A stretch of 40,409 bases of DNA from an uncultured Deinococcales bacterium (GTDB lineage Bacteria > Deinococcota > Deinococci > Deinococcales > JAAFIG01). Numbering within the stretch: the stretch's first letter is position 1; each line of letters begins with the position of its first letter. The notes under the pieces were generated by a model that searched no databases, was not told where the DNA came from, and worked only from the letters and a program-made list of their open reading frames with translations. This document shows, one piece after another, positions 10,520-30,134 of this stretch. Position numbers and translations under genes: made by a program. The DNA lies in NCBI GenBank assembly GCA_964247135.1, contig CAXTTL010000014.1, positions 1-40,409 of the forward strand, in the 5' to 3' direction.

Positions 10520-11455
10520 TCACGCACCAAGAGCGGTCAATACGGCTCGAGCCGCGAACAAATCTTCGACCGCCAAGCCAACCGATTTGAACAAAGTGAT
10601 CTCCTGACTCGAGTTTCTGCCTTGCACCACGCCAGAAACCAGGCTCGAGAGTTCCTGGGCGTCGTGCCAATTCCAACCCTCGAGGGCGGCTTGAATCAAT
10701 TCGCCCGCACCGTTTTGAGCGGCGCTCAGGTTGTCCACAACCACCGTGGACGACTTCACCGCGCTCGGGTCTGCCTCAGACATTTTTGGGGTGAACGCCC
10801 CGACCAGATCGAGGTGCTGACCTGAACGCAACCAACTGCCCAAAATCAAAGGTGTTTCGCTTCGGGTGGCACTCGAGATCACGTCCGATTCGCGGACCAA
10901 TTGCTCGAGACTCGAGGCGAGTTTGACCGAAACGCCGTTTGGTTCGAGTTCGGCTTGAAAATCTTGGGCGGCATGGCTTGAACGGTTCCACAACAAGACC
11001 TGCTCAAACGCTCGAACCTCGAGCAGAGCCTCGACTTGCGCCCTGGCTTGTGGTCCCGCGCCGATGATGCCCAACACTCGAGCATCGTCTCGAGCCAAAT
11101 AACTTGCTGCCAACGCCGAAACGGCTGCGGTGCGTCGTTCGGTCAATGCTCTGGCTTCAATCACCGCTTCGGGCTGACCCGTGACCGAATTTTGCAGCAC
11201 ATAACTCGAGTGAATGGTGGTCAAGCCTCGGGCGGCATTGTTCGGGTGTACCGTGACGAGTTTCGTTCCCAAGCCCACCGTGGGGGCGGTGCAGGGCATC
11301 ACCAGGTAAACACCGATTTCATCGGCAGGCAAAGACAAACGCTGTGGCATGGTGACGCTGCCCGCCGCCAATGCCAGAAACGCATCTCGAGCCACCTCAA
11401 GCGCCAAACCAGGGGTGAAAACACTTTGGACATCGGCTTCGGTGATGAATTTCAT
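10520..11455 (-). CDS. Ornithine cyclodeaminase/mu-crystallin family protein
   Basis: GTKLVTVHPNN, LTERRTAAVSALA, IIGAGPQA, FKSVGLAVED. Perfect TATAAT 7 nt before ATG 11455. Confidence 0.9.
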   Translation of the reverse strand: MKFITEADVQSVFTPGLALEVARDAFLALAAGSVTMPQRLSLPADEIGVYLVMPCTAPTVGLGTKLVTVHPNNAARGLTTIHSSYVLQNSVTGQPEAVIEARALTERRTAAVSALAASYLARDDARVLGIIGAGPQARAQVEALLEVRAFEQVLLWNRSSHAAQDFQAELEPNGVSVKLASSLEQLVRESDVISSATRSETPLILGSWLRSGQHLDLVGAFTPKMSEADPSAVKSSTVVVDNLSAAQNGAGELIQAALEGWNWHDAQELSSLVSGVVQGRNSSQEITLFKSVGLAVEDLFAARAVLTALGA

Positions 11456-11509
11456 TGCAGGAATTATAAATCTCGAGCCATAAAAGTGGCATCTGTGCTC
11501 AGACAAAAT

Positions 11510-11584
11510 TGGTTGAAGGTACAGGAATCGAACCTGTATTGCCTGTGTATCAGACAGGTTTCCTAACCGTTGGAAGAACCTTCA
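11510..11584 (-). tRNA. tRNA-Ile (GAT), atypical
   Basis: TGAAGGT/ACCTTCA acceptor, TTCC/GGAA D-stem, CCTGT-CTGATAC-ACAGG anticodon arm, ACAGG-TTCGATT-CCTGT T-arm, A-CCA end. Confidence 0.85.
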
Positions 11585-11588
11585 AAAC

Positions 11589-11664
11589 TGGTGATCTCGA
11601 GGGGAATCGAACACCTATTCTCACGTCGAGAGCGTGAAGTCCTAAACCATTGGACGACAAGACC
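11589..11664 (-). tRNA. tRNA-Glu (CTC), atypical
   Basis: GGTCTTG/CGAGATC acceptor (two G-U pairs), TCACG-CTCTCGA-CGTGA anticodon arm, one T-stem mismatch, A-CCA end. Confidence 0.85.
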
Positions 11665-11665
11665 T

Positions 11666-11740
11666 TGGCGGCTCTGGCGGGAATCGAACCCGCACCACTC
11701 GAGAGACAGTCGAGTATCCTAGCCATTGGAACACAGAGCC
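11666..11740 (-). tRNA. tRNA-Asp (GTC), atypical
   Basis: GGCTCTG/CAGAGCC acceptor, CTCGA-CTGTCTC-TCGAG anticodon arm, GCGGG-TTCGATT-CCCGC T-arm, G73 discriminator and CCA. Confidence 0.88.
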
Positions 11741-11803
11741 AAAAATAAAAAACTCGAGTTTGGTCGTAACCTTACTCGAGCAAAAAATGTACGGAAGGTT
11801 ACG
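11741..11803 (-). promoter_or_regulatory. Terminator/antiterminator (attenuator) directly upstream of the tRNA cluster
   Basis: CTCGAGT-AA-GGT-TACG-ACC-AA-ACTCGAG followed by TTTTTTATTTTT. The competing segment CGTAACCTT (11803-11795) is complementary to AAGGTTACG inside the hairpin. Confidence 0.7.
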
Positions 11804-11908
11804 TCAGGTTTGAATGCGTTCAGAATCTCGAGCCTCTGAATCGTGACGAATTTCAGGCGCAATTGGCTCGAATTCGGGGTTGTGTTCGATTGGCTTTGAA
11901 ATCATCAC
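11804..11908 (-). CDS. Putative 34-aa leader peptide MMISKPIEHNPEFEPIAPEIRHDSEARDSERIQT
   Basis: RBS GAGGTG 6 nt before GTG-ATG; the TGA stop abuts the antiterminator strand; 13 of 34 codons are Ile/Glu/Asp. Confidence 0.6.
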   Translation of the reverse strand: MMISKPIEHNPEFEPIAPEIRHDSEARDSERIQT

Positions 11909-12121
11909 GGGACTCACCTCGAGGGCTACTGTACGGCTTGGCTCGAGACTTGACATTCGCCAAATGGCGTAGGCAAGCCCTGCAAACGTTCGTTATCTTT
12001 TTTTTGGTCTAACACTCATTGTAGCCCAAAAGGGCATGAAATAAAACCGTTGCCCAAGACTGATCTCGAGGGTAGACTTGAGGTTGTGTTGTTTGAAACC
12101 CTCAAGCCTTCAGGAGAAACC

Positions 12122-13600
12122 GTGACCCTAGCCTTTACTGATGACAAGCCGCATGATGAATGCGGCGTTTTCGGCGTGTACGCTCCAGGGCGCGACGTTG
12201 CCCGCCTGACGTTTTTCGGACTGTACGCCCTGCAACACCGTGGGCAGGAGGCGGCTGGAATTGCCACCAGCGACGGCAAAAGCGCGTATCTGCACAAAGA
12301 CGTGGGTTTGGTGTCGCAAGTTTTTAACGAAGCCAACATGAAACCCCTGATCGGTTCGCACGCCATCGGTCACAACCGTTACAGCACCACAGGCTCGAGC
12401 TTATTGCGCAACGCGCAACCGTTTCTGATTGAAACCATCGATGGACCGCTGGGCGTGTCGCACAACGGCAACCTCACCAACACCCTCGAGCTTCGTAAAA
12501 TGCTGCTCGAGCGCGGCGGTGGGCTGCAATCCACCAGCGACAGCGAAATCATGACGCTGATGCTGGCAGCGCCCGTCGATGCCTGGGCGGCACTCAAACC
12601 CAGCGATTCCAACCTCGACCGTTGGCAGCAGCGTATTCTGGGTTTGATGCGCGTTGCCAAAGGCGCGTACTCCCTCGCCATTCTGACCCGTGATGCGGTT
12701 TACGGCGCTCGAGACGCGAACGGTTTGCGCCCGCTCTGCCTTGGAAAGCTCGAGGGTGGTTACATGATCGCCTCCGAAACCAGTGCTTTGTTTACGATTG
12801 GCGCGGAGTTCGTGCGCGAAATCGAACCTGGCGAGATCATCAAAATTGATGCGCACGGCATCACCAGCATCAAACTCGAACACGATGCGCCTCGAGCCTT
12901 GTGCAGCTTCGAGTACGTGTACTTTGCCCGCCCAGATTCGGTCATGGAAGGACAAGTGATTCACGATGTGCGGCAACGCCTTGGGCGGCAACTGGCAAAA
13001 GAAGCGCCCGTGGTTGCCGATGTGGTGATTGCCGTACCCGATTCCGCCACACCGCACGGCATCGGTTTTGCGCTCGAGACAGGCATTCCGTACACCGAAG
13101 GTTTGATCAAAAACCGTTACATCGGACGCACGTTTATTCAACCCGACCAAAGCCTGCGCGAGCTTGGAATGCAACTGAAATACAACCCGCTTCGCGCCAA
13201 TCTCGAGGGCAAACGCATTGTGTTGGTCGATGACAGCATCGTGCGCGGCACAACTTCGGGACCGCTGGTGCAACTCGTGCGCGACGCTGGCGCGATTGAA
13301 GTTCACGTCCGCGTGGCAAGCCCGATGATCAAGCACCCGTGCTTCATGGGCGTGGACATGGCAACCTACGGGCAACTCATCGCGCACAACAAAACGCTCG
13401 AGGAAATTCGGGTTCATATCGGCGCCGACAGCCTCGCGTACCTTTCGGTGGACGGACTGAAAAGCGCCATCGGTGAAGGCTCGAGCATGAATCATGGGCA
13501 TTGCACCGCGTGTTTCTCGGGTGAATACCCCATCGACATTCCCGCCTGGTTGTTCGGTGACACTCGAGATCAAGCGCTGTTTGAGGGGAGCTTGACTTGA
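12122..13600 (+). CDS. purF: Amidophosphoribosyltransferase
   Basis: Propeptide + ECGVFG, LQHRGQEAAG, HNGNL, CSFEYVYFARPDS, VDDSIVRGTT. GTG 12122 follows AGGAG. Confidence 0.96.
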   Translation: MTLAFTDDKPHDECGVFGVYAPGRDVARLTFFGLYALQHRGQEAAGIATSDGKSAYLHKDVGLVSQVFNEANMKPLIGSHAIGHNRYSTTGSSLLRNAQPFLIETIDGPLGVSHNGNLTNTLELRKMLLERGGGLQSTSDSEIMTLMLAAPVDAWAALKPSDSNLDRWQQRILGLMRVAKGAYSLAILTRDAVYGARDANGLRPLCLGKLEGGYMIASETSALFTIGAEFVREIEPGEIIKIDAHGITSIKLEHDAPRALCSFEYVYFARPDSVMEGQVIHDVRQRLGRQLAKEAPVVADVVIAVPDSATPHGIGFALETGIPYTEGLIKNRYIGRTFIQPDQSLRELGMQLKYNPLRANLEGKRIVLVDDSIVRGTTSGPLVQLVRDAGAIEVHVRVASPMIKHPCFMGVDMATYGQLIAHNKTLEEIRVHIGADSLAYLSVDGLKSAIGEGSSMNHGHCTACFSGEYPIDIPAWLFGDTRDQALFEGSLT

Positions 13601-29762: not shown

Positions 29763-30134
29763 TGGTGGAAGCGGAGGGGGTCGAACCCTCGTCCAAAAAC
29801 CCGTCCAACGGGTGTCTACAAGCTTAGCCTTCGTTTTGATGTCGCACCCGAACGCTCCCAAAGGCAGGATTTCTCGAGCACCAACCCCATTTATTTCGCG
29901 TCTCGGTATGGGGTGTTCTGGACGCTAGCAGTCTTTAGTTAAGCGGGTTAAAAACCAACTGCTGGGTTTTTAAGCGGCTTTCGCTGGGATTAAGCAGCGA
30001 GAAGATTTGCTTCAGAGTTGAAGCTAAGAACATTGTTGCCAGTTAAGGCTTTGGTGGAATATTTTCGAGGCCAACCACCATCCTCGGCTTGCAACCACAT
30101 CTTCAATGATCCCTGTCGAAACCAATACGCTCCC
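29763..30134 (-). ncRNA. ssrA: tmRNA
   Basis: 5' GGGAGCG..GGTTTCGACAGGG; 3' GGACGAGGGTTCGACCCCCTCCGCTTCCACCA with G3-U70; tag ORF GNNVLSFNSEANLLAA* follows TAACT. Confidence 0.95.

Follow-up and report, generated by a model that had tools for sequence, protein, structure and literature searches.

Leader sequence upstream of a tRNA trio

The stretch of DNA analysed here, referred to as the window, comprises 40,409 nucleotides (nt) of one contig from an uncultured Deinococcales bacterium, whose genome was labelled G000. It contains genes for three transfer RNAs (tRNAs), tRNA-Asp, tRNA-Glu and tRNA-Ile, preceded by a leader with the layout of a candidate transcription attenuator. The leader was held by a 309-nt intergenic region, with a divergent amidophosphoribosyltransferase-like open reading frame (ORF; 12050..13600, plus strand) on one side and the three tRNA genes on the other. 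The trio leader with its tRNAs was located on the minus strand at 11956-11510. In the direction of reading, the features were:

11951..11956, minus strand: -35-like hexamer of a putative promoter, 17 nt upstream of the -10-like hexamer
11928..11933, minus strand: -10-like hexamer of the same putative promoter
11915..11920, minus strand: Shine-Dalgarno motif GAGGTG of the upstream ORF (uORF), 9 nt 5′ of the ATG
11804..11905, minus strand: uORF of 33 codons plus TGA (11806-11804), conserved ATG at 11905
11795..11803, minus strand: candidate antiterminator 5′ strand, the 9 nt directly after the stop codon, pairing 9/9 with 11765-11773
11752..11781, minus strand: intrinsic-terminator hairpin with CTCGAG-based arms, -13.7 kcal/mol, 11 pairs, internal loop
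11741..11751, minus strand: T-tract (U-tract in the RNA), ending at position -1 of tRNA-Asp
11666..11740, minus strand: tRNA-Asp(GTC), of the array type described below, U at position 37; ARAGORN, Rfam 59.2 bits
11589..11664, minus strand: tRNA-Glu(CTC), array type; ARAGORN, Rfam 49.1 bits
11510..11584, minus strand: tRNA-Ile(GAT), array type; ARAGORN, Rfam 60.6 bits

The 5′ half of the terminator hairpin (11765-11773) was at the same time the 3′ strand of the candidate antiterminator. Only 11 nt separated the hairpin from tRNA-Asp, which leaves no room for a separate promoter in front of this gene. A simple terminator scan did not list the hairpin 11781-11752 because of its internal loop. The initial annotation of the region, made from the sequence letters, had named a possible promoter -10 element, a ribosome-binding site, a 34-amino-acid ORF with its TGA, a 9/9 pairing, a hairpin, a U-tract and the tRNAs. 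All of these were present, exactly or within a few bases. The ORF itself required a correction. A product of 34 amino acids with five Ile, six Glu and two Asp is obtained from a GTG at 11908, one codon upstream of the ATG, and this start occurred only in G000. The conserved start was the ATG at 11905, giving 33 codons.

Conservation of the trio leader within the genus

Leader and tRNAs were found next to the same upstream block in five of five same-genus genomes, with 74-83% identity. Together with G000, this gave six trio loci, which were compared in a six-way alignment. All loci and genomes used for comparison were metagenome bins, and whatever goes beyond sequence, spacing and complementarity we infer. 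In all six loci the uORF was 102 nt long, began at the same ATG and ended in the same alignment column, without insertions or deletions. Conservation of a leader uORF in homologous clusters, proposed as a check with the initial annotation, was thereby borne out. The other two reading frames contained one to four stops in every one of the six uORFs. The encoded peptide was fast-evolving, with 48 synonymous versus 229 non-synonymous codon differences, and the differences were even over the codon positions (107/145/148). A frame that is kept while the peptide is not is expected of a leader that needs only to be translated. Invariant in all six uORFs were Asp-27 and Glu-29, located five to seven codons before the stop.

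Around the uORF, the bases flanking the -35-like hexamer were invariant in six of six orthologues, as were four of the six positions of the -10-like hexamer. Purine-rich equivalents of the Shine-Dalgarno motif were present in the trio orthologues. The terminator hairpin was nearly invariant in the six loci; in one orthologue, two extra pairs closed the internal loop (-19.7 kcal/mol). A scan of the genome contigs with a degenerate terminator pattern returned only the five known same-genus bins, and the degenerate trio-terminator pattern had no match in the metagenome contigs. Among the sequencing runs listed as containing the stretch there was no RNA run, and the best DNA run contained a fraction of 0.26 of its sequence words. 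Judged from the alignment, the uORF, the stop-adjacent candidate antiterminator strand, the terminator and the tRNAs are a conserved module.

Over the six orthologous loci, ARAGORN called tRNA-Asp in five, tRNA-Ile in five and tRNA-Glu in one. The Glu(CTC) gene was absent in two genomes, a short repeat took its place in one, and its T-arm was degenerate in two others. This gene is decaying within the genus. The 5′ half of tRNA-Ile was also replaced in one genome.

Spare tRNAs and the long tRNA array

The trio tRNAs had been regarded in the initial annotation as backup copies, and the remainder of the genome agreed with this. Housekeeping genes for Asp(GTC), Glu(CTC) and Ile(GAT) were present on contigs C202, C251 and C8. 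They were ordinary bacterial sequences and very different from the window trio. Mean identity between array-type tRNAs and their housekeeping isoacceptors was 66% (n=18). The assembly of G000 comprised 5.09 Mb in 386 contigs at 84% completeness, and its housekeeping tRNA set was thus not fully seen.

Most spare tRNA genes of G000 were located in a main array of 22 tRNA genes within about 3.7 kb of contig C157 (locus L016 1827-5563, minus strand), serving 18 amino acids. Genes for exactly Asp and Ile were missing from it. The Glu(CTC) gene of the trio was 87% identical over about 80 nt to the array gene for Glu(TTC). Array and window trio together formed a second tRNA set for all 20 amino acids. 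In four other genera the array had the order His-Tyr-Asn-Asp-Arg...Val-Ile-Met-Phe. Because Asp and Ile are located inside the array there, the trio is interpreted as an array fragment that was relocated in this genus. Seven other-genus loci that were not cut by a contig or locus end held 25-30 genes per array. The array of G009 had 29 genes, counting a His-Tyr-Asn-Asp block separated by an insertion. Matches to array-type tRNAs were found in 15 of the 18 other genomes of the family and in none of 22 genomes from four sister families, a patchy distribution. L-arrays in the sense of PMC8421152 comprise about twenty tRNA genes or more on one strand, add isoacceptors to a complete housekeeping set and occur patchily, and the array agreed with them in these three respects.

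Two further observations concern the spare set. A 251-amino-acid ORF was located within the array between tRNA-Leu and tRNA-Cys (L016 2276-3031, minus strand). It was probably acquired recently, since it was AT-rich and nearly free of CTCGAG; it had no Pfam match above the cut-off and no PADLOC match. The U at position 37 of the spare tRNA-Asp was invariant in the six orthologues and was the sole pyrimidine at this position among 25 array-type tRNAs. A purine at position 37 is almost universal in tRNAs. Two tRNAs on contig C305 also carried a pyrimidine there.

Leaders of the array in five genera

Array leaders were taken as the 600 nt upstream of tRNA-His. This gave 15 loci from five genera. 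G004 (no match) and G010, G015 and G018 (no tRNA-His match), assemblies of 57-87% completeness, were left out. The comparison thus covered 21 leaders, six from trios and 15 from arrays. The leader of the C157 array (L016 5564-5850) consisted of a promoter-like -35/17 nt/-10 pair, a Shine-Dalgarno motif, a 56-codon uORF, a 24-nt gap, a hairpin of -16.2 kcal/mol and a T-tract reaching tRNA-His. The other arrays followed the same plan. A purine-rich Shine-Dalgarno equivalent and an ATG-initiated uORF of 48-72 codons were present at 15 of 15 array heads. In all 21 leaders, a hairpin of -11.9 to -24.5 kcal/mol was followed by a T-run, and the gap from stop codon to hairpin was 21-25 nt. The sequence of the hairpin varied between genera, with 10-13 pairs kept and three to five pair types per stem position, as obtained from per-leader folds and a count by stem position. 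RNAalifold on a MAFFT alignment of the 21 attenuators was discarded: it predicted no pairs, the stems of different genera being out of register.

The distance from the hairpin to the first tRNA was 10-17 nt in this genus and 24-60 nt in the other genera. The hairpin is too close to the first tRNA for a separate promoter, so the tRNAs would be made by read-through. The layout of -35, 17-18 nt and -10 scored 8-9 of 12 at 14 of the 15 array leaders; in G006, the best site ended 3 nt before the ATG. The -35 region of the array leaders and the four bases before it were nearly identical across genera, and CTCGAG followed the -10 element in most. Conservation beyond the needs of a plain promoter could mark a regulator site alongside the attenuator.

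Complementarity between the gap and the terminator

The candidate antiterminator was evaluated in all 21 leaders by folding the RNA from the stop codon to the terminator loop, corresponding to the nascent RNA before the 3′ arm, and by comparison with 500 shuffles of the gap. In every leader the gap paired with the 5′ arm and loop of the terminator, at -8.0 to -15.5 kcal/mol. Values of z ranged from -0.98 to -3.50, with z <= -2 in 16/21 leaders and a shuffle fraction <= 0.05 in 18/21. The alternative hairpin of the G000 trio leader had -13.7 kcal/mol and z = -3.29. As a control, 80 other terminator-like hairpins of G000 gave a mean z of -0.05 (standard deviation 0.94), and three of them (3.7%) reached z <= -2.

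Counted from the first base of the stop codon, the 5′ strand of the candidate antiterminator began at a distance of 0-8 nt in the 21 leaders. A terminating ribosome would cover about the first 12 nt from this base, and the strand thus begins inside its footprint. For the whole G000 leader, the minimum free energy structure (-50.6 kcal/mol, z -3.18) contained the stop-adjacent pairing and not the terminator.

The full design was also searched for with a detector that considered 330 nt upstream of a position and required a hairpin of <= -11 kcal/mol with a T-run within 80 nt, and, 15-30 nt before the hairpin, the end of an ATG-initiated ORF with 30 codons or more. Two of the 66 tRNA genes of G000 were detected, namely those that head the trio and the array. 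On random positions, the detector responded in 6 of 600 cases.

Proposed attenuation mechanism

The arrangement is best read as a ribosome-mediated transcription attenuator that would turn on spare tRNAs when translation falters, and we give this reading, which has strong backing from the comparison of leaders, a probability of about 0.7. Three features of attenuators were found, a leader ORF with a ribosome-binding site, a terminator before the genes and an antiterminator strand shared with the terminator. Transcription would start at the promoter around 11956-11928, and the first ribosome would translate the 33-codon uORF. A ribosome arriving at the stop in step with RNA polymerase would cover the post-stop strand with its footprint. 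The terminator hairpin would then form, and transcription would end at the U-tract, one base before tRNA-Asp. With a ribosome that is late, stalled in the uORF or absent, the post-stop strand would instead pair with the 5′ half of the terminator. Polymerase would continue into the tRNA genes, and the tRNAs would be released by RNase P.

That the promoter is used, the uORF translated and transcription ended or continued at the hairpin, and under which condition induction occurs, is all deduced from the sequence elements. Induction of a spare set under impaired translation is proposed because the trio is a detached piece of the array and the main array has the same device. Most likely, impaired translation leads the module to activate a second, divergent tRNA set. 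We favour a general sensor of how well translation proceeds, and treat tuning by amino acid composition below as a minority reading.

Several results weigh against this mechanism. The shuffle test was not passed at 0.05 by the trio leaders of G001 (0.074) and G004 (0.154) and by the array leader of G011 (0.084). In a ribosome-position model, whole leaders were folded at equilibrium while a 28-nt mask was moved codon by codon. Here, the terminator probability of the G000 trio leader rose from 0.00 in the absence of a ribosome to 0.97 when one was placed at the stop. This clean switch between the two states, as envisaged in the initial annotation, was confined to G000. Without a ribosome, the terminator probability was 0.11 and 0.33 in two trio orthologues and 0.84-0.97 in the other three; these three of the six trio leaders kept the terminator at any ribosome position (0.84-0.97), as did 14 of the 15 array leaders (at least 0.91). 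Only 13/21 leaders lost 0.1 or more of the upstream pairing of their 5′ arm when the mask was placed at the stop. Since the equilibrium folds mostly keep the terminator, the switch, if real, must be kinetic, with the antiterminator forming first unless it is blocked in time. The switch of the trp attenuator is kinetic, and its terminator is also the more stable structure.

Two further features of attenuators were not seen. No conserved first stem (a 1:2 or region-1 hairpin), which would enforce termination on untranslated RNA, appeared in the leader folds, and the leaders contained no tandem run or cluster of regulatory codons for a sensed amino acid. Because of the missing first stem, an untranslated leader should read through, unlike those of trp and his. 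The trp/his-type geometry claimed in the initial annotation therefore held for leader ORF, antiterminator and terminator, and has to be given up for the first stem and the regulatory codons. The array uORF of one genus group also showed an excess of third-position differences (6/4/18), and a WQGR stretch of the uORF peptide was common to different genera. The array-leader peptide itself may matter in a way that the simple model does not use.

The terminator hairpin needs separate consideration, since its arms are built on CTCGAG. The window contained 320 copies of this hexamer versus 6.85 +/- 2.68 expected (about 47x). In the 5.09 Mb of the genome, 33,925 copies (6.7 per kb) were counted, roughly tenfold the count of the next palindromic hexamer. 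At 283 places in the genome, two CTCGAG copies in close spacing were followed by a T-rich tail, and this too speaks against a special role of the hairpin. As nearby copies can pair with each other and 283 such cases exist, a CTCGAG hairpin with a U-tract is by itself not remarkable here. With hairpins of this kind so common in the genome, the case for an attenuator must rest on comparison. A functionless chance arrangement in a CTCGAG-saturated genome would account for the hairpin, but not for the conservation of the locus in six of six genomes. It would also leave unexplained that 14 of the 15 array leaders have analogous hairpins without CTCGAG arms, and that the full design occurred at 2/66 tRNA genes, both heading an array or its detached part, versus 1% of random positions. 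Because the locus was found in five of five same-genus genomes, the main array had the same design and the detector and terminator controls were low, the feature is placed above chance. On the comparative data, a chance origin is very unlikely.

Each of the 297 contigs longer than 5 kb contained the hexamer, at no fewer than 2.6 copies per kb, and ten loci from all five genera of the family had 5.2-8.5 per kb. It was found even inside tRNA stems. Its abundance resembles the cyanobacterial HIP1 phenomenon.

The uORF might instead be an independent small-protein gene with the hairpin as its terminator, the tRNAs being made by constitutive leakage without any switch. Such a gene would fit the thermodynamic dominance of the terminator in most leaders, the purifying selection seen to some extent on the peptide of one genus group, and the WQGR stretch. 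Against it stands the peptide of the trio, which by the codon differences given above is not conserved. A protein gene also does not explain the complementarity between gap and terminator arm, which was absent at the 80 control terminators, or the fixed spacing of 21-25 nt, or the duplication of the module when the tRNAs were relocated. Moreover, a strong terminator before promoterless genes makes little sense without control. We consider a small-protein gene improbable.

Rated lower again is a trans-acting factor that would bind the leader and make the uORF incidental; it could be a protein, a small RNA or, as in T-box leaders, an uncharged tRNA. Parts of the promoter region and leader were conserved beyond the hexamers, which such a factor would explain. 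A parallel is the tRNA array of Anabaena, reported to be controlled at its promoter repeats by a putative repressor (PMC8421152). No known leader, riboswitch or T-box was found with Rfam, neither in the window at gathering scores nor in the leader up to E = 10, where the sole match was noise at E = 1. An incidental uORF is also at odds with a reading frame, Shine-Dalgarno motif and stop position that were kept in 21/21 leaders despite sequence divergence. Control by a trans-acting factor and ribosome-mediated attenuation are compatible with each other.

Amino acid composition of the uORFs

According to the initial annotation, the leader senses Ile, Glu and Asp codons, the amino acids of the three tRNAs. 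Each trio uORF contained 5-8 Asp and Ile among 32 residues (7/32 in G000) against a background of 10.1%, with P between 0.012 and 0.22 per genome. The pooled shares of Asp and Ile were:

Six trio leaders: 40/192, 21%
Five same-genus array leaders (no Asp or Ile gene in their arrays): 7/288, 2.4%
Ten other-genus array leaders (Asp and Ile genes present in their arrays): 42/523, 8.0%
Background: 10.1%

A specific form of the attenuator can be derived from these values. Ribosomes would stall at Asp, Ile and Glu codons when charged tRNAs are short and thereby induce the same tRNAs, and the array leader would sense the amino acids of its own array. The difference between trio leaders and array leaders of the same genus (21% versus 2.4%) agrees with this, and the contrast was seen in five of five genomes with both leaders. 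The positions of Ile and Asp shifted between orthologues and their number stayed at 5-8. The 56-amino-acid array leader of G000 lacked exactly Asp and Ile (P = 0.0029 for both missing), and Asp-27 and Glu-29 were invariant in six of six trio uORFs. A precedent is the uORF of whiB7, whose composition is reported to dictate the starvation that is sensed (10.1101/2023.06.02.543512).

Other observations contradict specificity. The contrast rests on one evolutionary event in one genus, and three same-genus array leaders held two Ile and one held one Asp. Leaders also contained amino acids that their array does not supply, namely Thr in G014 and G008, Ala and Thr in G007, and Ile, Gln and Thr in G005; four leaders were without Val though their arrays encode tRNA-Val. 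The Glu codons of the six trio uORFs were 13 GAA versus 6 GAG, while the tRNA with anticodon CUC reads GAG, and a Glu gene was called in one of the six trio loci. Tandem regulatory codons were missing. The leaders used 18-20 kinds of amino acids, little above the 17-18 of random sequences (P 0.016-0.52).

Amino-acid-specific sensing is accordingly a doubtful refinement of the attenuator. For Asp and Ile the enrichment is present and modest, and the case for sensing them is weak; for Glu the claim fails. Two related ideas were rejected. A leader sampling all amino acids was too weakly indicated by the 18-20 kinds versus 17-18 expected (P 0.016-0.52), and a leader that senses only what its array supplies is contradicted by G014, G007, G008 and G005.

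Tentatively, and at the same low level of confidence, the composition could reflect a self-correcting loop of tRNA supply. The leader would sample the codons that the tRNAs of its own operon serve, and a shortage or the destruction of housekeeping tRNAs would turn on the divergent back-up set. When the Asp and Ile genes left the array, Asp and Ile codons would have left the array leader and built up in the new leader. Anticodon nucleases of phages or competitors would be an example of a trigger that stalls the ribosome in the leader. The back-up set may escape whatever disabled the first set, and U37 of the spare tRNA-Asp would fit this.

Comparison with known systems

Leader-peptide attenuation is a textbook mechanism known from trpL, hisL, pheL and the ilv leaders. 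The leaders described here share with them a Shine-Dalgarno motif with a short uORF, a terminator before the genes and a candidate antiterminator that uses one of the terminator strands; they also place the stop codon such that a terminating ribosome would cover the antiterminator 5′ strand. They differ in that the output is tRNA genes and not biosynthetic enzymes. In addition, they have no regulatory codon run and no conserved first stem acting as anti-antiterminator or pause site, and their uORFs, at 33 and 48-72 codons, are long and mixed in composition. With T-box leaders they would have in common that antitermination is tied to the status of tRNA. T-box leaders differ by sensing uncharged tRNA directly, by having no uORF and by regulating synthetase and amino-acid genes.

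To our knowledge, the control of individual bacterial tRNA genes is largely unknown. In PMC8421152, the promoter repeats of the Anabaena array are called the first indications of tRNA-gene regulation. The trn operon of Anabaena sp. PCC 7120 is there the only long tRNA array studied experimentally and was induced more than 100-fold by ribosome-targeting antibiotics (PMC8421152). It is the nearest biological analogue: a long, supernumerary array that is normally silent and is switched on by impaired translation (PMC8421152). Its control was assigned to direct repeats over the -10 box and the start site and to a putative repressor (PMC8421152). The words attenuat-, terminator, leader peptide, uORF and small ORF were absent from the text of PMC8421152. 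The leader of the Anabaena array on pCC7120delta contained only a 4-codon mini-ORF and no hairpin with T-tract. A common origin with the Anabaena array found no support, as its tRNAs were 64% identical to those described here and no closer to them than housekeeping tRNAs. The survey in PMC8421152 lists Deinococcus-Thermus among the phyla without L-arrays.

The nearest functional analogue found was the mycobacterial whiB7 leader. Inhibition of amino acid synthesis, tRNAs or tRNA synthetases is reported to activate it through a uORF whose composition sets what is sensed (10.1101/2023.06.02.543512). As described there, it is a broad sensor of translation stress in which a longer uORF is followed by a terminator and stalling leads to antitermination. 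It differs by having a transcription factor as output, and it belongs to a different phylum and has no sequence relation to the leaders reported here. The attenuators of vmlR and toiL/topAI are similar in that stalling on a uORF is reported to relieve premature termination (PMC9226507, PMC12121999). Their reported outputs are resistance factors or toxin-antitoxin genes, and toiL acts via Rho (PMC9226507, PMC12121999).

The initial annotation knew of no described leader-peptide attenuator with tRNA genes as output. None was found in full-text searches of PubMed Central and bioRxiv, which did not cover subscription journals and supplementary files. What the sequences describe is a putative attenuator of familiar mechanism with an undescribed output, family-wide and duplicated when the array was split. 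They suggest that these uncultured Deinococcales switch on a second tRNA set when ribosomes slow. If so, leader-peptide attenuation would gain tRNA genes as a further output. A cis-acting leader that reads the speed of translation and answers with tRNA would be the most direct feedback imaginable from the ribosome to its own substrates, and long tRNA arrays would gain a testable purpose. The family offers a natural experiment, with one genus that has split the array and given each part its own leader copy, and with five genera that have different hairpins at the same spacing.

Other features of the window

Directly after tRNA-Ile, a promoter-like site (10/12) was located at 11463-11492 on the minus strand, before an ornithine-cyclodeaminase-like ORF (10520-11506). 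No terminator was evident 3′ of the trio tRNAs, and read-through into this ORF is therefore possible. Upstream of the leader, palindromes were present at 11981-11992 and 11957-11970, the latter adjoining the -35 element of the leader. Both were part of a block that is conserved in six of six loci upstream of the divergent purF-like gene, and the first resembles the enterobacterial PurR box. The palindromes could act as operators, either of purF or of the leader promoter. A gene for transfer-messenger RNA was located at 29763-30134 on the minus strand of the same window (Rfam 169 bits), with a tag peptide ending in LLAA.

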